64,000 bases of DNA from Rhodospirillales bacterium (GTDB lineage Bacteria > Pseudomonadota > Alphaproteobacteria > Rhodospirillales > Thalassospiraceae), in contig JAHQVT010000012.1 of NCBI GenBank assembly GCA_019634165.1, positions 117,528 through 181,527 of the forward strand, given 5' to 3'. A program made the position numbers and the translations under genes. The notes beneath the pieces are model-generated. The model was not told the DNA's origin. It worked only from the letters and a program-made list of their open reading frames with translations, and ran no database searches. Position 1 is the stretch's first letter; every line of letters starts with the position of its first letter. Positions 15,006 through 27,174 of this stretch are shown piece after piece.

Positions 15006-16052
15006 ATGGCAAAACGCGTAAAACTTCTGGATGTCGCAAAGGCTGCCGGGGTTTCGCAAGGAACAGCGTCGAATGCCTTTGGCAAACCTGATCTGGTGCG
15101 CCCGGAAGTTCGCGAACGCATTTTTGCGGCCGCCAAGGAACTTGGCTATCGCGGACCACATGTCATGGCCCGCATGTTGCGTACTGGTAAGGCCGGCGCG
15201 CTTGGCGTGGTTTTTCCTGACAATCTTGAATATGCCTTTACCGATCCGGCGGCGATTGAATTGCTGCGCGGGATCGGGCGTGAATGCGCCCATCACGGGG
15301 TCAATGTCATGATCATATCGGCAGAAAATCAAAAGCAGGCGATTGCTGCAGTCAATAATGCCGCGGTCGATGCATTTCTGGTCCATTGCTATTCGGATAA
15401 CAATGACATCATTGCCGCCATTCAGCGCCGCAATCAGCCGTTAATTAGCATTGATACCGATATTGCCGGTGCGGCGGGAAGTGTGGTCCTTGATGATCAT
15501 GCTGCGGCAAAGGGGGCGGCGGAACATCTGCTTGATTGTGGTGCGAAAAAGTTTGCTATTCTGTTGTTGCAGGCAACTGAACATGACCATTTTGGTCCGA
15601 TGAATGCCAACCGCGTTGGCGCAGCCAGCCACCGTGTCGTGCGCGAACGATTGGCAGGCTATCATGACGCCTTGGTCGAGGCCGGGATCGCACCTGATGA
15701 TGTGATCCATATCGAATGCGACAACCAATCTGAACATAGTGCTCGGCTGACTGTCGAAATGTTGGAAAAACACCCCGAAATTGACGGCATCCTTGCCATG
15801 TCTGATGTCATTGCGATTGGTGCTATTGATGCCGCTCATACGGTTGGGCGCAAGGTGCCAGATGATCTTAAAATCATCGGCATTGACGGGATTGTGGCGG
15901 GCGAACGCAGCGATCCCCCTTTAACGACGATGTGTCAGGATTCGGTTGAAAAAGGCCGTCTGGCCGCTGAAATGGCGCTGTCAGATGAAGGCGGCAAAGC
16001 CATCACCCTTTCAACCAAACTGTTGCTACGCGGCTCAACCCAGTCGCGTTAA
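15006..16052 (+). CDS. LacI family transcriptional regulator
   Basis: N-terminal HTH LLDVAKAAGVSQGTASNAF; periplasmic-binding-fold C-terminus (VPDDLKIIGID, PPLTT). Confidence 0.92.
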   Translation: MAKRVKLLDVAKAAGVSQGTASNAFGKPDLVRPEVRERIFAAAKELGYRGPHVMARMLRTGKAGALGVVFPDNLEYAFTDPAAIELLRGIGRECAHHGVNVMIISAENQKQAIAAVNNAAVDAFLVHCYSDNNDIIAAIQRRNQPLISIDTDIAGAAGSVVLDDHAAAKGAAEHLLDCGAKKFAILLLQATEHDHFGPMNANRVGAASHRVVRERLAGYHDALVEAGIAPDDVIHIECDNQSEHSARLTVEMLEKHPEIDGILAMSDVIAIGAIDAAHTVGRKVPDDLKIIGIDGIVAGERSDPPLTTMCQDSVEKGRLAAEMALSDEGGKAITLSTKLLLRGSTQSR

Positions 16053-17212
16053 CCGGGAAAATCAAATTCCGGCAAGTCCCGCTTCCCCGCCAAACCATCC
16101 CAAAGCGCAAGATACCGGTCATTCATGGCAGTTAGGCTGTAATGATCAATGATCCGTTTGCGGGATGCGGCCTTGCGGAATGCTTTGCTGTTTGGGTCTT
16201 CGTTCAAAAGTTCTTCAATCGCGGTGGCCATTTCATTTGGCGCATGCAGTTTTACGGTTTTTCCCGTTCCACCAAGGATTTCGGCAACATCGCCAACATC
16301 ATTCCCAACTGCTGGTACACCACATGCCATGGCTTCTCCGATAACATTGGGGAACCCTTCGCCAAAGCTTGATGAAAGAACCGCAACATCAAGGGCCGGA
16401 ACAAGTTGGGCGACGTCACGGCGCAGGCCAAGGGCAGATACATGGCCCTTTAACCCATCAGGGATAGGTAGGGTTTCAGTATCCTGTCCGATCAAAACCA
16501 AATGCAGATCATGGCCGTTTGCACGGGCAAGCTCGACAGCCTTAAACAAGGTCGCATGATCCTTTGCCGGGTCTTTGCGTGCGACCATGCCAATCAGCGA
16601 TGTGGTCGGGGCAAGGCCAAGTTCTTTGCTTAGGCGTTTTTTCGCGCCGAAATCAGGGCGCCATTCGTCGGTATCAAACCCGTTTGGAAGATAGGCCCAC
16701 TTTTTCGGGTGATAGCCGCATGTGATGTGGTGGCGTTGTCCGGCATGGGAATTTGCGGCAATAACTGCTGGTCGGCCTGAAAGCTTTGCCTGAGCGCTTA
16801 AAACAATCCGTGTTGATCTGCCATAAAGCGACAAATCCATTTCCGCACAGCGAATGTTCCACGCCAGCCGCTTGGTTCCGCGTCCTGAAATGGTTGCGGC
16901 CAAGGTGGCGATAAAGTCGGAATGATACAGCCATGACATGATGGCATCAGGTTTATGGCGGCGCATCAGACTGGCAAGCTTGAATATCGCACCGGGCAGA
17001 TCACGGATGCCCGATGTCATGCCCAGACAAAATAGCTCAACCCCTGCTTTGCGAAGGTCCGCCCCATAAACACCTTCATCCATCAGCGAAACAACGATCT
17101 GGCGCGGGGCATCAGGATCAGTACTTTTGGCATTATGGCATGCGATCCGGGTCAGGACGCGCTCTGCGCCCCCGGCATCAAGTTCATTGATGATGTGCAT
17201 TACCAAAGTCAT
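16049..17212 (-). CDS. Glycosyltransferase family 4
   Basis: GGAERVL N-terminal motif and EGFPNVIGEAMACGVP GT-B motif. Confidence 0.92.
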   Translation of the reverse strand: MTLVMHIINELDAGGAERVLTRIACHNAKSTDPDAPRQIVVSLMDEGVYGADLRKAGVELFCLGMTSGIRDLPGAIFKLASLMRRHKPDAIMSWLYHSDFIATLAATISGRGTKRLAWNIRCAEMDLSLYGRSTRIVLSAQAKLSGRPAVIAANSHAGQRHHITCGYHPKKWAYLPNGFDTDEWRPDFGAKKRLSKELGLAPTTSLIGMVARKDPAKDHATLFKAVELARANGHDLHLVLIGQDTETLPIPDGLKGHVSALGLRRDVAQLVPALDVAVLSSSFGEGFPNVIGEAMACGVPAVGNDVGDVAEILGGTGKTVKLHAPNEMATAIEELLNEDPNSKAFRKAASRKRIIDHYSLTAMNDRYLALWDGLAGKRDLPEFDFPG

Positions 17213-19762: not shown

Positions 19763-20581
19763 TTACTGATACCAATCTGTTGGTATAGGTTGTCTGCGTT
19801 GGCTTCGAAGATGGGTACCATGTACAACATGCCAAGCCATCCAGTTACCCGGTTGAGAATCAATCAGAAACACTTCATCAAATGAGAATTCTCTCATTTG
19901 ATAGATTTGATCAATTGCATCTAAGATAAGTAGGTGTGATGAGAGTGACTGGTCGCTGAATTCAAGTGCAAGAACTGCCTTGTTGTTACGCTTCGGAAGC
20001 CCCTGAAACTTCTTCAGTTTGCTTATGAACGCCTTTTCGATCCGGCTATTGCGTAAGCTTTCTAGTGCGGGAGGTGACAGCCTCGTGAAGTTAGTATGTC
20101 CGCCGTGAGGAGTTCTTGTGGTCGCAAGGATGCGGATTTCCAAGCCGTTAATGTTTATTGAGATTTCTTTGTACGGTTGATCATCATTTAGGTCTGTAAT
20201 AAGCGGAATGATTCTGTTGATTCTCAAAGCGGCTTCTCTCGCATTCGCATTAATTGTTCGGCTAGAGAAATCATAAACTTTGTAGGACACACAAATGTTT
20301 ACTTCAACGTGATCTGGAACCGGTGCGGTTACTTCCATCCGTAGTTGTGAAATAAATCGCAAAAACTTTTCATCACCTTTGAGTGCGCCATCATACGGCT
20401 CAATTTGTGTGTGTTCTATCCAATAGCTTGTTCCTTTCAGATCTACATGCCAATCGGTTGCTTTTTTTTCCTGGTCTAGCTCATCTGGTGCGAATTCGTT
20501 GGCGGGCAACGAATTCGTCATACGAGCTAAGAGCTGAACGACAATTTCGCAGCACTTTTTTTGGTTAGGTGTTTCTCCCAT
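19763..20581 (-). CDS. Hypothetical protein, AT-rich, possible PD-(D/E)XK-like nuclease fold
   Basis: 272-aa ORF from ATG 20581 with GGAG RBS; GC 30-52% per 60-nt line in spot counts versus ~53% background; APD...TDW...WIEHT pattern (fold call is inference). Confidence 0.75.
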   Translation of the reverse strand: MGETPNQKKCCEIVVQLLARMTNSLPANEFAPDELDQEKKATDWHVDLKGTSYWIEHTQIEPYDGALKGDEKFLRFISQLRMEVTAPVPDHVEVNICVSYKVYDFSSRTINANAREAALRINRIIPLITDLNDDQPYKEISININGLEIRILATTRTPHGGHTNFTRLSPPALESLRNSRIEKAFISKLKKFQGLPKRNNKAVLALEFSDQSLSSHLLILDAIDQIYQMREFSFDEVFLIDSQPGNWMAWHVVHGTHLRSQRRQPIPTDWYQ

Positions 20582-20646
20582 GCGGCTACCAACTCCACTA
20601 ACTGAAGTGTACGAAATCTGTCTCGTATGATTTGAACGGTCCTGTA

Positions 20647-20750
20647 TTGCAAAGGCCAAGCTCAAAGCGACATCGGGACGCCAACGGCAACTAGTATGAT
20701 TTCAAACACTCAGCCGTATTTCAAGTCAGCGCAAATTCAAAGCCACTGGT
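20647..20750 (-). pseudogene. Decayed copy of the 3' end of the SLC13 permease gene
   Basis: 20647-20705 matches 25036-25094 at 48/59 nt; translates FEIILVAVGVPMSL*AWPLQ versus IEIIVVAVGVPMLLWVWPL*; weaker gapped similarity continues to ~20750. Confidence 0.85.
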
Positions 20751-20979
20751 ACTGCAAATACAAGCGCCATCATGATGCGTCTGGCCTGATTTCTTATTGG
20801 TTGGTTTGGTTTATTGATCGGCCTTGCCGCGTGCAGTGCGGTGAAGTATTGCTGCATGCCGCTGTCATCTGAATAATGATGCCGCGATCTTTTTCCACCA
20901 GATGAAATTGGTGTATGCTGGTCGTCTTCGGACCATCATAATGAAGTTTGTGCGCTTCTGATTGAACAAGGTTTTACCG

Positions 20980-22278
20980 ATGCCCCATTCCCAACCCGAA
21001 CTTGCCTATGGCCGTGGATTTATTTCGGTAAAACTGCCCGACACTGCGCGCGCGACCGTCATTCGTAAGGCCGAGCTTGCAAAGCTTCCTGACAATCAGG
21101 TTGCCATTCGAAATGCACTTGAAAATCCGGTTGATGCCGCACCGCTTTCGGAGCTGGCCAAAAATCGCAAAAGTGCCTGTATCCTGATTTGCGATATTAC
21201 CCGCCCCGTTCCCAATAAGCTGTTCCTGCGCCCGATGATCGAGACGATGCTCGCGGCAGGCATCGCGCAAAGCGAAATTACCGTTTTGGTTGCGACCGGT
21301 CTGCACCGACCCAATCTGGACGAAGAGCTTGAAGAACTTGTGGGTGACCCGTGGGTTTTGGAAAATGTTCGGGTTGAAAACCATTATGCGCGGAACGAAG
21401 ACGATTTGATCGACCTTGGCGTAACGCCAACCCGTGGTGTTCCGGTCAAGCTTAACAAACGTTTGGTCGAGGCTGATCTTCGGATTGCAACAGGCTTGGT
21501 TGAGCCGCATTTCATGGCAGGTTGGTCTGGCGGGCGTAAAGTTGTTGCGCCTGGTGTTGCCGGACATGAAACCATCCGCACATTCCATTCCGCCCGTTTC
21601 ATGGAAGACCCGCTGGCGGTTCAATGCAATCTTGCAGGCAATCCGCTGCATGAAGAGCAGCTTGAAATCGTTCGCAAGCTTGGCGAGACATATGCGCTGA
21701 ACACCGTTCTGGATGAAGACCGTGACCTTGTTCATGTGACATTTGGCGAAATCATCGCCAGCCACCTTGCCGCTGTGAGCTATATTTCAGAAGCAACCCG
21801 TGTTGATGTTGGCCGGAAATACAGCACCGTGGTTACGTCGTCTGCTGGTTATCCGCTTGATAAAACCTATTATCAGACGGTCAAGGGCATGGTCACCCCG
21901 ATGGATATCCTGAAACCCGGCGGGACCTTGATCATTGCATCAGAATGTTCCGAAGGGTTTGGGTCCGAGGAATTCCGCGATGCACAGGCAAGGTTGGCCG
22001 AGCTTGGGTCCGAGCGTTTTTTGGCAACGCTGAAAGCCAAAGCACTTGCCGATATCGACGAATGGCAAACCGAAATGCAGCTTAAACCGATGCGGGTTGG
22101 CAAGGTGCAGCTTTATACCAAAGGGCTGAGTGCGGAAGAAAAACGCATTACCTGTGTTGAGGTTGTGGATGATCTTGATCAGGCCATTGCGCACAGCATT
22201 GCGCAAAGCGGTGATATGGACGTCGCCATTATCCCCGAAGGCCCCTATGTCATTCCGGTGTCGGGCAACAATGAATGA
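20980..22278 (+). CDS. larA: Nickel-pincer-dependent lactate racemase superfamily protein (LarA homolog)
   Basis: DITRPVP, ATGLHRP, EPHFMAGWSGGRK, GYPLDKTYYQTVKG; start ATG 20980 (TTG 20962 possible). Confidence 0.92.
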   Translation: MPHSQPELAYGRGFISVKLPDTARATVIRKAELAKLPDNQVAIRNALENPVDAAPLSELAKNRKSACILICDITRPVPNKLFLRPMIETMLAAGIAQSEITVLVATGLHRPNLDEELEELVGDPWVLENVRVENHYARNEDDLIDLGVTPTRGVPVKLNKRLVEADLRIATGLVEPHFMAGWSGGRKVVAPGVAGHETIRTFHSARFMEDPLAVQCNLAGNPLHEEQLEIVRKLGETYALNTVLDEDRDLVHVTFGEIIASHLAAVSYISEATRVDVGRKYSTVVTSSAGYPLDKTYYQTVKGMVTPMDILKPGGTLIIASECSEGFGSEEFRDAQARLAELGSERFLATLKAKALADIDEWQTEMQLKPMRVGKVQLYTKGLSAEEKRITCVEVVDDLDQAIAHSIAQSGDMDVAIIPEGPYVIPVSGNNE

Positions 22279-23516
22279 ACCATATCCATCTTGATGCTGT
22301 TGGCGGGATTGCCGGCGATATGTTTATCGCCGCAATGCTTGATATGATCCCGCATCTGCGCCCAACGATTGATCAGGACATAAAACGCATTGTTCCCTCC
22401 GATGTTGGCAGCGTTGAAATTGCGAAAATCCGCAAAAACGGCATGCATGCCCAAACGTTCAATCTGGTCTTTAACCCGGATTATGAAGCGCATGGCAAAT
22501 CGGATCATGGGCATGATCACGAACACGATCACCGCATAGGATCTGGCGCATACACCGATATTGTTGGCTATATCCGGTCTTCTGAACTGGCACCGGGTAC
22601 GATTGAGGTTGCCTGTGCCATCTTGACGATTTTGGCGGAAGCCGAAGCAAAAACCCATGCGGTTGATATAAAGGACGTTCATTTTCACGAGATTGCCGAT
22701 TGGGATTCTGTTTTGGATGTCGTGATCGCAGGCAGCATCATTGCCGCCTTGGCTGATACCAGATGGAGCGTATCGGACCTGCCGCGTGGCGGCGGGCTTG
22801 TTAAAACCCAGCATGGGTTGTTGCCCGTTCCGGCCCCGGCAACGGCCGAAATTCTGTCCGGATTTGCGTGGCGTGATGACGGTGTTTCGGGTGAACGTGT
22901 GACTCCAACCGGTGCCGCCATCTTGAAATATCTGATTGATCCAGAAAATACCGATGCGGCTTGGCCGAGGTCTGCAAGGTTGCTTGCAAGTGGTGTTGGG
23001 GCAGGAACGCGCACCATTACGGAATTGCCAAACATTCTGCGCGCATTGCAGTTTAGTGCGGCATCTGAGGCGGGCGATGCAGCCTATGATCAGGATCATG
23101 TTACGGTCATTGAATTTGAAATCGACGATATGACAGGCGAGGAAATTGCCACTGCATCGGAAATTTTACGCGGTTGTGATGGTGTCATTGATCTGGTGCT
23201 ATTGACAGGTCAGGGCAAGAAAAACCGCGCGGTGACGTCGTTCCGATTATTGGCACAGCCTGCCTTGGCAGACCATGTAATGGATGCGTGTTTTGCCCAG
23301 ACATCGACCATCGGTCTTCGTCATCAGGTGAGCGAACGACGTATCCTGCGCCGTGTTGCAGGACTTGATAAAAGTGGTGTTCGGGTCAAGCATGTTACGC
23401 GGCCTGATGGGGTTACGTCGTGCAAGGCGGAACATGATGATTTAACCGGCAAAGATTTGCATTCTCGCCGTCGTCAAAAATACCAAGCCGAACTACAAGC
23501 TGAACAAAAGGGGTGA
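22275..23516 (+). CDS. larC: Nickel-pincer cofactor nickel insertase LarC
   Basis: GIAGDMFIAA, His-rich HGKSDHGHDHEHDH, VHFHEIADWDS, PVPAPAT, TPTGAA, IDDMTGE, TSTIGLR. Confidence 0.93.
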   Translation: MNHIHLDAVGGIAGDMFIAAMLDMIPHLRPTIDQDIKRIVPSDVGSVEIAKIRKNGMHAQTFNLVFNPDYEAHGKSDHGHDHEHDHRIGSGAYTDIVGYIRSSELAPGTIEVACAILTILAEAEAKTHAVDIKDVHFHEIADWDSVLDVVIAGSIIAALADTRWSVSDLPRGGGLVKTQHGLLPVPAPATAEILSGFAWRDDGVSGERVTPTGAAILKYLIDPENTDAAWPRSARLLASGVGAGTRTITELPNILRALQFSAASEAGDAAYDQDHVTVIEFEIDDMTGEEIATASEILRGCDGVIDLVLLTGQGKKNRAVTSFRLLAQPALADHVMDACFAQTSTIGLRHQVSERRILRRVAGLDKSGVRVKHVTRPDGVTSCKAEHDDLTGKDLHSRRRQKYQAELQAEQKG

Positions 23517-24304
23517 GCATGGTTTTGCGTTCTCACCAATTTCTTGCCGATATCATCCTTGCCCAACCGCGTCTTGCAATCGCGGTAAGCGGTGGTGTTG
23601 ATAGCATGACGCTTGCAACATTTGCTCACATGGTGGCAGCTGATCGGATTGAAATGCTGCATGCTGTATCGCCTGCTGTGCAGCCTGCTGCGACGGTTCG
23701 GGTGCGCGATGCGGGGCGTTTGCAAAACTGGCACTTAACCGTGACCGGCACGGGTGAATTTGATGATCCGCGTTATCGTGATAACCCGGTTAATCGGTGC
23801 TATTTCTGCAAGACCAATTTATATGACCGGATACGCAGTTTGACGTCGGCCCCGATTGCATCGGGAGCAAATCTTGATGACCTAGGGGAATATCGGCCGG
23901 GATTGCTTGCAGCATCGGAACGGGATGTTATTCACCCGTTTGTTGATGCCGGTATGGCAAAAACAGACATCCGCGCACTTGCCCGCGAACTTGGGTTGGA
24001 TGATGTTGCCGAACTTCCAGCGCAGCCTTGCCTTGCCAGCCGCATAGAAACCGGCATTGCGATTGATCCAAACGATCTTGCCTTTGTCGATAGCATCGAA
24101 GGGTTTCTCAGCAACGAGCTTGGCCTAAGCGGGGATGTCAGATGCCGAATTACAAAATCAGGTGTGATTATTGAACTTCCCGAAAGCGAAATAACCTCCG
24201 AAATTCAAGCCCGGATTGCAGAACGTTGCAAGATTAACGATCGCGCGCTTATGGGGCTGCGCCCCTATCAGCGGGGTGCGATGTTTATTCAGGACAGACC
24301 ATGA
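23513..24304 (+). CDS. larE: ATP-dependent sulfur transferase LarE
   Basis: PP-loop SGGVDS, NRCYFCK, DDLGEYRPG, PCLASR. Confidence 0.92.
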   Translation: MSMVLRSHQFLADIILAQPRLAIAVSGGVDSMTLATFAHMVAADRIEMLHAVSPAVQPAATVRVRDAGRLQNWHLTVTGTGEFDDPRYRDNPVNRCYFCKTNLYDRIRSLTSAPIASGANLDDLGEYRPGLLAASERDVIHPFVDAGMAKTDIRALARELGLDDVAELPAQPCLASRIETGIAIDPNDLAFVDSIEGFLSNELGLSGDVRCRITKSGVIIELPESEITSEIQARIAERCKINDRALMGLRPYQRGAMFIQDRP

Positions 24305-24957
24305 AAAACGTTCATCAGCCCGATTGGGACCGACAAAGCCGAACCGGCTTTCCCGAGGCGATCTATTGCGCCCGAAAATCGCCTGAGCAAATCAACATCA
24401 TTATTGAAGATGCGGTTACGCGCCAGCGCCCGCTTTTCCTGACCGCTCTTGGGGTGGAAACCTATCAGGGGCTTGATCGGGACAATAGCGCGCAGCTTGA
24501 CTATGATCATGTGTCGGCCACGGGGATTGTTGGCAAGACAGCGCCGCTTGGACAATCAGGGGTCGGGATTATTGCGGCGGGAACGTCAGATATTCCTGTG
24601 GCGACCGAAGCCCAGAGAACCTTGGCGTTTTGCGGTTATGACAGCACAATGATCCACGATGTTGGTGTGGCAGGTCTTTGGCGGTTACTTGAACGGATTG
24701 AAGAAATTCAGCAATTCCGAGTCATCATTGCGCTTGCCGGGATGGAAGGTGCTTTGTTTAGTGTTCTGGCCGGACTGGTTGAGGCACCCGTAATTGCGGT
24801 GCCAACATCCGTTGGGTACGGCGTGTCAACGGGCGGAAGAACCGCCCTTGAATCCGCACTGGGAAGCTGTTCACCCGGCATCATGACGGTCAATATCGAC
24901 AATGGTTTTGGTGCGGCGGCAGCCACAATCAAAATCCTGCAATCTGCACATAAATAA
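24301..24957 (+). CDS. larB: Nickel-pincer cofactor biosynthesis carboxylase/hydrolase LarB
   Basis: DRQSRTGFPEAIY, AAGTSDIPVA, DVGVAGLWRL, AGMEGAL, PTSVGYG, VNIDNGFGAA. Confidence 0.95.
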   Translation: MKNVHQPDWDRQSRTGFPEAIYCARKSPEQINIIIEDAVTRQRPLFLTALGVETYQGLDRDNSAQLDYDHVSATGIVGKTAPLGQSGVGIIAAGTSDIPVATEAQRTLAFCGYDSTMIHDVGVAGLWRLLERIEEIQQFRVIIALAGMEGALFSVLAGLVEAPVIAVPTSVGYGVSTGGRTALESALGSCSPGIMTVNIDNGFGAAAATIKILQSAHK

Positions 24958-25035: not shown

Positions 25036-26943
25036 TTACAACGGCCAAACCCAAAGAAGCATCGGGACGCCAACGGCAACCACGATAATTTCAATCGGGA
25101 GGCCAAGCTTCCAGTAATCGCCAAACTTGAACCCGCCGGGGCCCAAGATCAGGGTATTGTTTTGATGCCCGATCGGCGTCAAAAAGGCGCAGGATGCACC
25201 AATTGCAACGGCCATCAGGAATGGATCGGAGCTGGCACCGAGTTGTGCGGCACTACCAATGGCAATCGGGCACATGACGGCTGCGGTAGCAGCATTATTC
25301 ATGAAATCAGATAGCGTCATGGTCACGACAAGGATCAACCCAACCGCAATCACGGCGTTGCCTTGTGCGACACTTTCAAGCAGGAAGCGCGCGATAAGGT
25401 CGGCACTTCCTGTACTTTCCATTGCATTGGCAACCGGTATCAATGCGGCAAGCAACACAATGACCGGCCAATCAACCGCATCATAAAGTGTTCTTGGGGA
25501 CACCACACCAAACAGCAGGGCAGCCAGAACACCAAAGGAGAATGAAACGGCGGCAGGCACAATGCCAAACGCCGCAAGCAGAATGGCAATTGCCATGATG
25601 GCGCTGGCTTTCAGTGCTTGTGATTTATCCCCCAGATAGATCGATCGTTCGGCAAGGGGCGCACAGCCCATCTGGTTGCCAAATTCATTGATCGCAGCGG
25701 GGGCTCCTTGCATCAAAAGCACGTCGCCAGCCTGAATTTTCATGGTGCGCAGGCGGGTCATGGAACGCTGCCCCTGACGTGATAGGGCCAAAAGATTGAT
25801 GCCATAGCGGCTGCGAATGCGGATGTCAGCAGCGGAGCGACCAATGAAATCGGCATTTGGCAGAACCACCACTTCGATCAGTGATACATCATCGGATTGA
25901 AGTGCTTTTTCATGCGATTTTTGTTCGGAGGATGCGTCTTTTTGGTCGCTATCTTTTTTCGTGGCGATTGCCTTTTCGGGGGATTTTTCAGCCTTTTGTG
26001 CCTTGGCCTGTTCTTTGGCTTCTTCCTTTTCCGCGGCATTGGCAGCAGCACTGCGCCACTCAGCTTCAAGTGTTAGTTCAAGCCCGGCCAAGGCACTTGC
26101 CAATCCTTCGGGTTCGGCTTCGATCAGAAGAATGTCGTTTTGATGTAACTCGCGATAGGGGCTTGGGGCGGCGATCCGGCGTTCATCGCGGATCAGTCCA
26201 ATGACCTGTGCATCGGATTTATCAAGTTCCAAGTTAATATCGCGCAGCAGCATTTTGGCCGCTTTGCTGCCTTCGGTAATGCGGGCTTCGGTCAAATATG
26301 ATCCAGTTTCAAACCCTTCTGCCCCGGCACGTTCGCGGGTCGGAACCAAAAACCGGCCAACCAGCATGACAAAGGCCAACCCCGATATGGCAATGGCAAT
26401 CCCAACCGGGCTGTAATCAAACATCGAAAAGCCGCTGCCGGTCAATTCAGCGCGGAAGCCCGATACAATCAGGTTGGGCGGTGTGCCGATCAAGGTTGTC
26501 ATGCCGCCCAAGATCGACCCAAACGCCAAGGGCATAAGGACTTTTCCCGGTGGGACACCTTGTTTGTTGGCAATCTGAAGGGCAACCGGCATCAAAAGGG
26601 CCAAGGCCCCGACATTGTTCATAAAGGCCGAAAGGATTGCTGCCAGCAGACTAAGTGCCGCAAGGGTGACAAACGGTCCTGCGGACTGCGGAAGGACTGT
26701 TCGTGTCAGGGTGTCAACGGCACCAGATTGCTGTAATGCCGATGACAGGACCAGAATGCAGGCAACTGTAATGACGGCGGGGTGGCCAAAACCAACAAAA
26801 GCGGCCTCGGTCGGGACCAGCCCCAAGCCCACACACATCAAAAGGGATGCCATCGCGACCATGTCATGGCGCCAACGTCCCCACAAAAACAGGGCGACCG
26901 TACCAATAAGAACGGTCAGAATCATGATTTGCGGGTTACTCAT
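25036..26943 (-). CDS. SLC13/DASS family permease with TrkA-C domains
   Basis: Start re-called to ATG 26943 (AGGA RBS); SAFMNN, LIGTPPNL, SDFMNNAAT, FLTPIGHQNN; two TrkA-C repeats. Confidence 0.93.
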   Translation of the reverse strand: MSNPQIMILTVLIGTVALFLWGRWRHDMVAMASLLMCVGLGLVPTEAAFVGFGHPAVITVACILVLSSALQQSGAVDTLTRTVLPQSAGPFVTLAALSLLAAILSAFMNNVGALALLMPVALQIANKQGVPPGKVLMPLAFGSILGGMTTLIGTPPNLIVSGFRAELTGSGFSMFDYSPVGIAIAISGLAFVMLVGRFLVPTRERAGAEGFETGSYLTEARITEGSKAAKMLLRDINLELDKSDAQVIGLIRDERRIAAPSPYRELHQNDILLIEAEPEGLASALAGLELTLEAEWRSAAANAAEKEEAKEQAKAQKAEKSPEKAIATKKDSDQKDASSEQKSHEKALQSDDVSLIEVVVLPNADFIGRSAADIRIRSRYGINLLALSRQGQRSMTRLRTMKIQAGDVLLMQGAPAAINEFGNQMGCAPLAERSIYLGDKSQALKASAIMAIAILLAAFGIVPAAVSFSFGVLAALLFGVVSPRTLYDAVDWPVIVLLAALIPVANAMESTGSADLIARFLLESVAQGNAVIAVGLILVVTMTLSDFMNNAATAAVMCPIAIGSAAQLGASSDPFLMAVAIGASCAFLTPIGHQNNTLILGPGGFKFGDYWKLGLPIEIIVVAVGVPMLLWVWPL

Positions 26944-27174
26944 TATGGTCGGTCCTGATGTGAAGGCCATACATTGGCCAATGGAAGAAAAGCCTATGGG
27001 GTTGGGGCTTGATTGGTCAAGCACAGTCCGATGAAATGATGGAAACCCAGTCTAAAACAAAAGCGTTTTCAGAGATATGAGGCTGCTGCCATATTTGTCA
27101 GGAGGATGTGATAGCATCTTCCTGTTTTTATGTGCCAATTTGATTGTTTGATCATGCAAAATGACAGTGCCGAC

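Follow-up and report, generated by a model that had tools for sequence, protein, structure and literature searches.

A nickel-pincer racemase operon in a Thalassospira-like genome, probably the relocated tail of an anhydrogalactose operon

The lar locus of Lactiplantibacillus plantarum, in which larA-E are accompanied by larR and by the transporter genes larMNQO, is the founding system of the lactate racemases, in which LarA, LarB, LarC and LarE serve racemisation with a cofactor, nickel-pincer nucleotide (NPN). To our knowledge, homologs of the racemase LarA have shown many activities in vitro, and almost no physiological roles have been demonstrated for them. We analyzed a 64,000-nucleotide stretch of DNA, referred to here as the window, from a Rhodospirillales bacterium (GenBank assembly GCA_019634165.1, contig JAHQVT010000012.1, positions 117,528 to 181,527 of the forward strand), which carries genes with the same LarA, LarB, LarC and LarE functions at positions 20980-24957 on the + strand, all four in intact frames. 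This larA-larC-larE-larB cassette is probably a selected, intact operon that was relocated from the tail of an anhydrogalactose operon and that most likely racemises glycerate and lactate.

An original prediction, made from the letters of the window alone, had described the locus as a self-contained and portable NPN racemase module of a marine alphaproteobacterium, joined by three 4-nt start/stop overlaps and without adjacent larD, larR or nickel transporter genes. Much of this description stands. The closest protein matches come from Thalassospira sp. (97-98% identical), in agreement with a marine alphaproteobacterium, the family matches and intact frames described below uphold the self-contained module, and the overlaps at the larA/larC, larC/larE and larE/larB junctions are ATGA, GTGA and ATGA, respectively. 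Among the annotated neighbours within ~10 kb there is no aquaglyceroporin (LarD), no Crp-type LarR and no nickel transporter, as predicted. In contrast, the L. plantarum locus has larD, larR and a dedicated nickel transporter, so the window does not hold a complete locus of that type, with larR, larD and larMNQO beside larA-E, and its gene order is A-C-E-B.

The lar genes and the subgroup of LarA

The three cofactor genes are readily assigned. The product of larC (22275-23516, + strand) is a nickel-inserting cyclometallase in which LarC1 and LarC2 are fused in a single frame, whereas the L. plantarum LarC1/C2 are frameshifted; it matches Pfam Ni_insertion at 4.6e-82 and the NCBIfam models for LarC1 and LarC2 with 161.3 bits (cut-off 90) and 89.9 bits (cut-off 50). 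The larE gene (23513-24304, + strand, with an alternative ATG start possible 6 nt downstream) encodes an ATP-dependent sulfur insertase that scores 241 bits on TIGR00268, for which the cut-off is 150, and larB (24301-24957, + strand) encodes a nicotinic acid adenine dinucleotide (NaAD) carboxylase/hydrolase with 249.5 bits on NF033503 (cut-off 175). Both LarB and LarC thus pass curated equivalog cut-offs, each in an intact single frame.

LarE carries the motifs SGGVDS, CYFC and PCLASR. When aligned to the L. plantarum enzyme (LarE_Lp), its third Cys falls one residue past Cys176 of LarE_Lp, and CYFC stands opposite WYYA. The LarE of Thermotoga maritima (LarE_Tm) belongs to the CXXC-C class, binds a [4Fe-4S] cluster and acts catalytically (PMC9283937). 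With an SGGXDS PP-loop, a CXXC-C pattern and a third Cys at the corresponding position, the window LarE would belong to this class as well, in contrast to the L. plantarum LarE, which is of the sacrificial Cys176 type; the label "sacrificial" is therefore probably not applicable to the window enzyme. Nickel genes are found elsewhere in the genome, namely those for CbiM (C6:443861), a NicO-family protein (C3:225570) and urease (C10:270853). In the mechanism we propose, LarB, a [4Fe-4S]-type LarE and the fused LarC would build NPN, with nickel arriving via the CbiM- and NicO-family transporters encoded elsewhere, and the cofactor would be loaded into LarA.

The larA gene (20980-22278, + strand) encodes a 432 aa protein that we assign to the NPN-dependent 2-hydroxyacid racemases of Group 2, the SAR type, and it is the sole Lar_N gene of the 4.28-Mb genome. 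Its start is the ATG at 20980, with a TTG further upstream at 20962. The protein consists of the Pfam domains Lar_N (PF09861, 2.5e-59) and LarA_C (PF21113, 1.9e-17), and its closest solved structures are 9eid and 9eia, those of the broad-spectrum LarA of Isosphaera pallida (LarA_Ip), with a match to PDB entry 9eid at 1e-98 over residues 14-433. The motifs lie at residues 72 (DITRP), 105 (ATGLH), 175 (EPHF), 184 (GGRK), 201 (TFH), 297 (YYQTVK) and 360 (DEWQT), and those that the original prediction had pointed out (ATGLH, EPHF followed by GGRK, and TFH) are among them. In the LarA superfamily, H108 and H174 are catalytic, K184 tethers NPN, H200 is a nickel ligand, and R75, Y294, Q295 and K298 bind the carboxylate and hydroxyl groups. 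All of these catalytic and NPN-binding equivalents, along with D72, are kept in an alignment with the Desguin reference set.

The protein most similar to the window LarA among the reference enzymes compared is Snov_3500 of Starkeya novella (77.6% identical, as against 40.9% for LarA_Ip and 31.8% for LarA_Tt), and in a signature of 20 residues (D R H H F M K H L Y Q V K A I D W Q T M) the sole difference between the two is V to I. Snov_3500 is tabulated in Group 02, "SAR", the short-chain 2-hydroxyacid racemases, for which a loop variant "Phe and Met" is also given (Desguin et al. 2020, PMC7583248). Taking as the mark of Group 2 an L-M or F-M pair after the second catalytic His together with Trp and Gln/Glu at the equivalents of W358 and T359, we find F-M-W-Q at these positions in the window LarA. 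In a maximum likelihood tree with references from Groups 1, 2, 3, 5 and 6, the window LarA and Snov_3500 fall in an alphaproteobacterial clade with support of 100/100, which nests with LarA_Ip, AciX9_2432 and Mahau_0818 at 99/97, the support for Group 2 overall being only 90/91. The clade is very large, with members 70-79% identical in Rhizobium, Ancylobacter, Vineibacter, Skermanella, Inquilinus, Acetobacteraceae and others. The window LarA thus falls into an established and partly characterised group and is no orphan. The original prediction had claimed an unknown substrate and a new stereoisomer, and this part does not survive the comparison with a published group that shares the F-M loop and whose relatives act on lactate, 2-hydroxybutyrate and glycerate; it had also staked its novelty on LarA not grouping with lactate-type racemases, and at the level of sequence it largely does group with them.

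Both Snov_3500 and LarA_Ip (PDB entries 9eia, 9eid and 9eif; LarAH2; PMC11851776) have the same fold, domains, and catalytic and NPN-binding residues as the window LarA, but the pocket of LarA_Ip reads L-M-W-Q rather than F-M-W-Q, and the residues A353, T360 and M362 of the window clade are F, L and E in LarA_Ip. LarA_Ip, the tested enzyme nearest to the window LarA, is thermophilic and without known physiological context, and it acts best on lactate and 2-hydroxybutyrate and then on L-glycerate (PMC11851776), whereas the context of the window LarA points to glycerate. Glycerate is racemised in vitro by LAR-group enzymes too, and one of them, LarAH43 of Enterocloster asparagiformis, prefers it (PMC11770544). 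LarAH43 shares with the window LarA a Gln at the T359 equivalent and a small hydrophobic pocket with Trp, although it belongs to Group 1 and the window LarA to Group 2.

It is possible, though rather doubtful in our judgment, that the cassette is an ordinary lactate racemase operon, interconverting D- and L-lactate for the oxidation of either form, with glycerate racemisation as a side activity. All close homologs are named "nickel-dependent lactate racemase" by NCBI, the best NCBIfam model is Ni_dep_LarA (the equivalog NF033504), and the preference of LarA_Ip for lactate and 2-hydroxybutyrate favours the same idea. However, the window LarA scores 362.7 bits on that model, whose cut-off is 460, and its loop is F-M rather than the F-F seen in the L. 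plantarum LarA, so that the window protein, which is ~32% identical to Group 1 enzymes, is not a canonical lactate racemase of Group 1. None of the curated NCBIfam LarA equivalog cut-offs is reached by the window LarA, the malate racemase (MAR) models giving 317 and 271 bits, below their cut-offs of 500 and 462. At the specificity positions, malate racemases have H/Q-K and the 2-hydroxyglutarate racemases (HGR) have Y-F-H/Q-T (PMC11770544), and the F-M-W-Q of the window LarA places it outside Groups 5, 6 and 7. Because the pocket is without these residues, a dicarboxylate seems an unlikely substrate.

The anhydrogalactose operon and the glycerate kinase relic

In the canonical 3,6-anhydro-L-galactose pathway, a regulator, an aldehyde dehydrogenase, an ABC transporter and a cycloisomerase are followed by a lower route in which, as Lee et al. 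(2014) and Yun et al. (2015) are said to have described, 2-keto-3-deoxy-L-galactonate (L-KDGal) is converted to 2-keto-3-deoxygluconate (KDG) by a 5-dehydrogenase and a 5-reductase. The same regulator, dehydrogenase, transporter and cycloisomerase are found in an operon of two relatives of the window genome, here called G003 and G010, in which the lar unit occurs in a second context, with larA 10 nt downstream of a glycerate 2-kinase gene (glyK; DUF4147 + MOFRL). The order in G003 is a GMC oxidoreductase and a GntR-FCD regulator (divergent), then an aldehyde dehydrogenase, a sugar-binding protein, an ABC ATPase, two permeases, an MR_MLE enzyme, a short-chain dehydrogenase/reductase (SDR), an FAH-family protein, the glycerate 2-kinase, and larA, larC, larE and larB. 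These operons are located at L125 7238-12373 and L119 419-12161 in G003, and at L121 and L126 in G010.

Matches to solved structures suggest a specific chemistry for this operon. The MR_MLE enzyme matches PDB entry 5xd7, 3,6-anhydro-alpha-L-galactonate cycloisomerase, at 7e-157, and within the genus G003 and G010 alone have orthologs of this cycloisomerase, each with lar behind glyK. The aldehyde dehydrogenase matches PDB entry 6j75 at 8e-147; the entry is named only "aldehyde dehydrogenase A", and we take it to be anhydrogalactose dehydrogenase. The SDR matches the L-KDF (2-keto-3-deoxy-L-fuconate) 4-dehydrogenase of PDB entries 8y11, 8y46 and 8y4j at 3e-91, and the FAH protein matches the L-2,4-diketo-3-deoxyrhamnonate hydrolase of PDB entry 8gsr at 8e-98, with 434 bits on the NCBIfam model that matches its PDB match. 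A plasmid of Roseibium aggregatum (L138) shares this regulator, dehydrogenase, transporter and cycloisomerase, and there a Zn-type alcohol dehydrogenase and an SDR follow, as in the canonical lower route.

In contrast to the canonical pathway, the lower half of the operon in G003 and G010 thus consists of a 4-dehydrogenase and a diketo-acid hydrolase of the kind known as Route III, followed by the glycerate 2-kinase and larACEB, and the operon of the genus appears, on these matches, to have swapped its lower module for Route III chemistry. The same dehydrogenase (8y46-like) and FAH hydrolase (8gsr-like) serve the Route III pathways for L-fucose, L-rhamnose and pentoses (PMC6336799, PMC11199699), whose products are pyruvate and a 2-hydroxy acid; the described routes are without a racemase, whereas the operon discussed here has lar attached. 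L-KDGal is the second-best substrate of L-KDF 4-dehydrogenase (PMC11199699). In Route III, L-fuconate yields pyruvate and L-lactate (PMC6336799), and by analogy L-KDGal should yield pyruvate and L-glycerate. In the donor operon, then, the 4-dehydrogenase and the 2,4-diketo-3-deoxy-acid hydrolase would split L-KDGal into pyruvate and L-glycerate, and LarA would turn the L-glycerate into D-glycerate, the form taken by the D-specific glycerate 2-kinase. Glycerate and a hydrolase are both absent from a 2024 review on how KDGal is catabolised, and we found no paper on a "glycerate racemase", or on a lactate racemase together with fuconate, in the open-access literature.

The window holds a trace of this arrangement. 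Directly upstream of larA, at 20872-20961 (+ strand), lies a relic of ~90 nt from a glycerate 2-kinase (MOFRL) gene, namely from its 3' end, and the relic region is colinear with the end of glyK in the G003/G010 operon. In tblastn, NNDAAIFFHQM-KLVYAGRLRTIIMKF aligns with NNDAWTFFHQLDRLVHTGPTLTNVNDF at 13 of 27 identical residues. A global alignment of the 90 nt that lie 40-130 nt upstream of the larA ATG gives z = 8.1 and 7.1, with none of 3000 shuffles reaching the score and controls at 2-8 as against 17-19, while a stringent local nucleotide alignment is marginal (the score is reached by 3 and 58 of 2000 shuffles); we take the global alignment, which is matched by position, as decisive. Since the alignment to the end of glyK is colinear, we infer that the unit at the window site was copied from a glyK-larACEB arrangement; the copying would have run from the anhydrogalactose operon to the window site, in that the lar part and ~90 nt of glyK alone would have moved, landing at the 3' end of a permease gene. 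The original prediction overlooked both the relic and the origin in an anhydrogalactose operon, and it is these two together that yield a concrete hypothesis for the substrate.

The insertion site and its other cargo

Across the genus (Thalassospira, by best protein matches), larA is present in 4 of 37 species genomes. In three of them, namely the window genome, G010 and a further relative, G027, folD and the permease gene flank the lar unit. The site is empty in G029, where these two genes are only ~209 bp apart. Positions 20940-24939 of the window are the only part it has in common with the loci L119 (G003) and L121 (G010), where the unit occupies another position, and in G010, which holds both copies of the unit, these are 99.5% identical over 4013 nt. 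The claim that the module is portable is therefore well founded, given its patchy distribution, its two contexts, the near-identical twin copies in one genome, and an insertion site that we describe below as a hotspot.

On its left, the lar insertion is bounded by a direct but decayed copy (20647-20870) of the final ~230 nt of the permease gene, the intact 3' end of which lies at 25036-25265. Within it, a direct repeat of 89 nt (20647-20735 and 25036-25124) is 72% identical and has a 21-nt identical core. The corresponding upstream copies in G027 and G010 are 228-231 nt long with 78-80% identity, a second degenerate copy is present in G027, and G003 has such a copy at this site too, where it accompanies another small insert. 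Copies of the repeat lie at L118 (11873-12102 and 12784-12903) and at L123 (7356-7451). Because the 3' end of the permease gene is duplicated, in one or two copies, upstream of different small inserts in several genomes, this end, and with it the interval between folD and the permease gene, is a recurrent insertion hotspot. The direct repeats, which copy the target gene's 3' end, and the empty site among relatives are hallmarks of a site-specifically integrated islet. There is no integrase or recombinase in the insert, whose only other open reading frame (ORF), at 19763-20665, is without a Pfam or NCBIfam match, and no tRNA gene was found near it.

The permease itself is a CitMHS/DASS (SLC13-like) protein with two TrkA_C domains, encoded at 25036-27024 on the - strand and convergent with larB. 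The original prediction had suggested that it may feed the racemase, with LarA racemising or epimerising a new 2-hydroxy acid supplied by this carboxylate permease. In favour of this stand the physical adjacency of the two genes, across a gap of 78 nt, and the fact that DASS transporters carry di- and tricarboxylates; in the same direction point a LarA for which no model reaches its curated equivalog cut-off and the clade's own residues A353, T360 and M362. Nevertheless, we regard such a link as very improbable. The permease gene stands beside folD in relatives without lar, its orthologs being found in 29 of 37 genus genomes whether lar is present or not, and lar lies elsewhere in G003 and in the second copy of G010. 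A DASS-type permease gene is found beside larA in none of the 80 related larA loci surveyed below, and the pocket of LarA is unlike those of the malate and 2-hydroxyglutarate racemases. The adjacency of larB and the permease gene exists because the 3' end of the permease gene is the insertion site, the duplicated end marking it as a by-product of insertion.

The listed ORF of the permease has 662 aa from an upstream GTG, and its orthologs align only from residue 25-32 on, which suggests that the true start probably lies ~26-32 codons inside it. We considered whether the permease gene is a pseudogene in G027 and G010, and rejected this, as the internal stops there correspond to query residues 8-27 and precede the probable start.

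Two other small elements lie nearby. The orphan ORF at 19763-20665 (- strand) has 300 aa from a TTG, or perhaps spans 19763-20581 from an ATG, and its GC content is 43.5%, that of the flanks being ~53%. No Pfam or NCBIfam family matches it, 8 loci of genus relatives are without a homolog and its own genome is without a paralog; it is a separate cargo of the same hotspot, outside the lar function. A GT4 glycosyltransferase gene at 16049-17212 (- strand) is present in the window genome, G027 and G010 and absent at that position in G032, G029, G003 and G005, and is another small accessory insertion. Besides these, the neighbours within ~10 kb are tag, yggT, a DUF167 gene, folD, the permease gene, an AlkZ-like glycosylase, an SDR and a CUT1 sugar ABC transporter.

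Selection, partner genes and the probable role of the cassette

Ratios of nonsynonymous to synonymous substitution (dN/dS), computed against the relatives with lar at the same site, are 0.04-0.08 for larA, 0.15-0.18 for larC, 0.08-0.09 for larE and 0.09-0.10 for larB, at dS values of 0.17-0.73; for folD, they are 0.05-0.06 at dS 0.26-0.38. Purifying selection has acted on the cassette since its insertion, and a dN/dS of 0.04-0.18 therefore argues that it is functional. These values bear directly on whether the cassette is merely a hitch-hiking remnant, the tail of a pathway severed from its operon, possibly untranscribed and without current function in this genome. The upstream genes of the pathway are indeed absent from the genome, a promoter-like site was not found upstream, and the glyK piece has clearly decayed. 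The four frames, however, are intact and pass curated cut-offs, and their dN/dS over the dS range given equals that of the housekeeping gene folD, which makes a functionless remnant hardly credible.

With the operon relocated from the anhydrogalactose pathway, as we favour, LarA would act here in trans with enzymes encoded elsewhere in the genome, namely two glycerate 2-kinases, LutABC and GlcD-like oxidases. The two glycerate 2-kinases, both distant from lar, belong to a tartrate-type cluster (TctABC + two Iso_dh) and a glyoxylate-type cluster (GntR, Hyi-like). In the first of these, at C2:242298-252411 (L128), the kinase gene lies between two Iso_dh-family (tartrate-dehydrogenase-like) genes and beside TctABC; this is likely a tartrate utilisation cluster, and D-glycerate from LarA could enter there. 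The genome also encodes a lactate permease, LutABC and three GlcD-like oxidases, and has no clear LldD. The most likely function of the cassette in this genome is thus the stereo-conversion of glycerate and/or lactate in trans. An FAH homolog in the same genome (72% identical, C12:312939-313781) was rejected as a Route III marker, since its context is aromatic (phenol hydroxylase, a glyoxalase-family dioxygenase, LysR).

For a wider view, we surveyed the neighbourhoods of 80 related larA loci, with synteny assessed by tblastn and GC3-weighted gene calling. All of larC, larE and larB lie within 8 kb of larA in 52 of the 80, most commonly in the order A-C-E-B, and the permease, the orphan, AlkZ and folD of the window are near larA in 0 of the 80. 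The neighbours that recur, each in a minority of the loci, are GntR-FCD regulators (12 loci), SDRs like KDF dehydrogenase (12), aldo-keto reductases (10), enzymes like 3-hydroxyisobutyrate dehydrogenase (7), HAAT ABC transporters (7), GlcD-like FAD oxidases (6), glycerate kinases (4), FAH hydrolases (3) and LutBC (2).

On megaplasmids of Rhizobium and Phyllobacterium, larA lies within a Route III cluster of the L-fucose type that also has a GlcD-like oxidoreductase and gloA, a layout that fits the inversion of L-lactate to D-lactate. In these two loci (L130, Rhizobium leguminosarum pSK01; L131, a plasmid of Phyllobacterium zundukense), a GntR regulator and an NAD(P) oxidoreductase split larA from larCEB, and the cluster further holds an MR_MLE enzyme, two aldo-keto reductases, an amidohydrolase, a HAAT-type ABC transporter, an FAH hydrolase, an SDR, an FAD oxidoreductase and gloA. 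The theme common to the plasmid clusters and the operon of G003 and G010 is the recruitment of a small-hydroxy-acid racemase by which the L form that a diketo-acid hydrolase releases becomes a usable D form.

The plasmid clusters, with L-lactate as the product of their Route III set and with their FAD oxidoreductase and gloA, also speak for the ordinary lactate racemase introduced above, as do the lactate permease and LutBC of the window genome and the two loci in which LutBC adjoin larA. In the genus, however, the unit is joined to a glycerate kinase gene and not to lactate genes, and LutABC, which seemingly oxidises L-lactate, together with the three GlcD-like oxidases leaves a racemase not obviously needed for lactate.

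Several points weigh against a relocated operon that racemises glycerate and lactate. No sigma-70-like promoter site on the + strand was found upstream of larA, where no riboswitch or other Rfam family was found either, and the cycloisomerase operon is absent from the window genome. No neighbour dominates in the 80 loci, glycerate kinase, FAH hydrolase, LutBC and GlcD-like genes being found at the counts given above. The L configuration of the glycerate would follow from analogy with L-fuconate and L-lactate. Finally, the LarA clade sits on a long stem (0.82 changes/site) and is only 41% identical to LarA_Ip, and its specificity may have shifted.

We propose tentatively a broader reading that may hold: the lar unit would stem from an undescribed variant of the catabolism of 3,6-anhydro-L-galactose (agar), in which oxidation of L-KDGal at C4 and then hydrolysis give pyruvate and L-glycerate and LarA is the physiological glycerate racemase feeding a D-glycerate 2-kinase, and the Group 2 LarAs of alphaproteobacteria would be stereo-adaptors that invert the L-2-hydroxy acids of Route III (L-glycerate or L-lactate) to the D form for D-specific kinases or dehydrogenases.

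Taken alone, the window cassette is an operon of a well-annotated kind, and what the locus adds is its traceable origin together with the hypothesis of a glycerate racemase in a variant agar-sugar pathway. The relic of glyK and the sister copies that end an anhydrogalactose operon point to a specific role, the racemisation of L-glycerate to D-glycerate, and they indicate that the catabolism of agar sugars in marine bacteria likely has a new lower branch. The locus also documents a package of cofactor genes and enzyme moving as a 4-kb unit and being retained by selection after its separation from the pathway.

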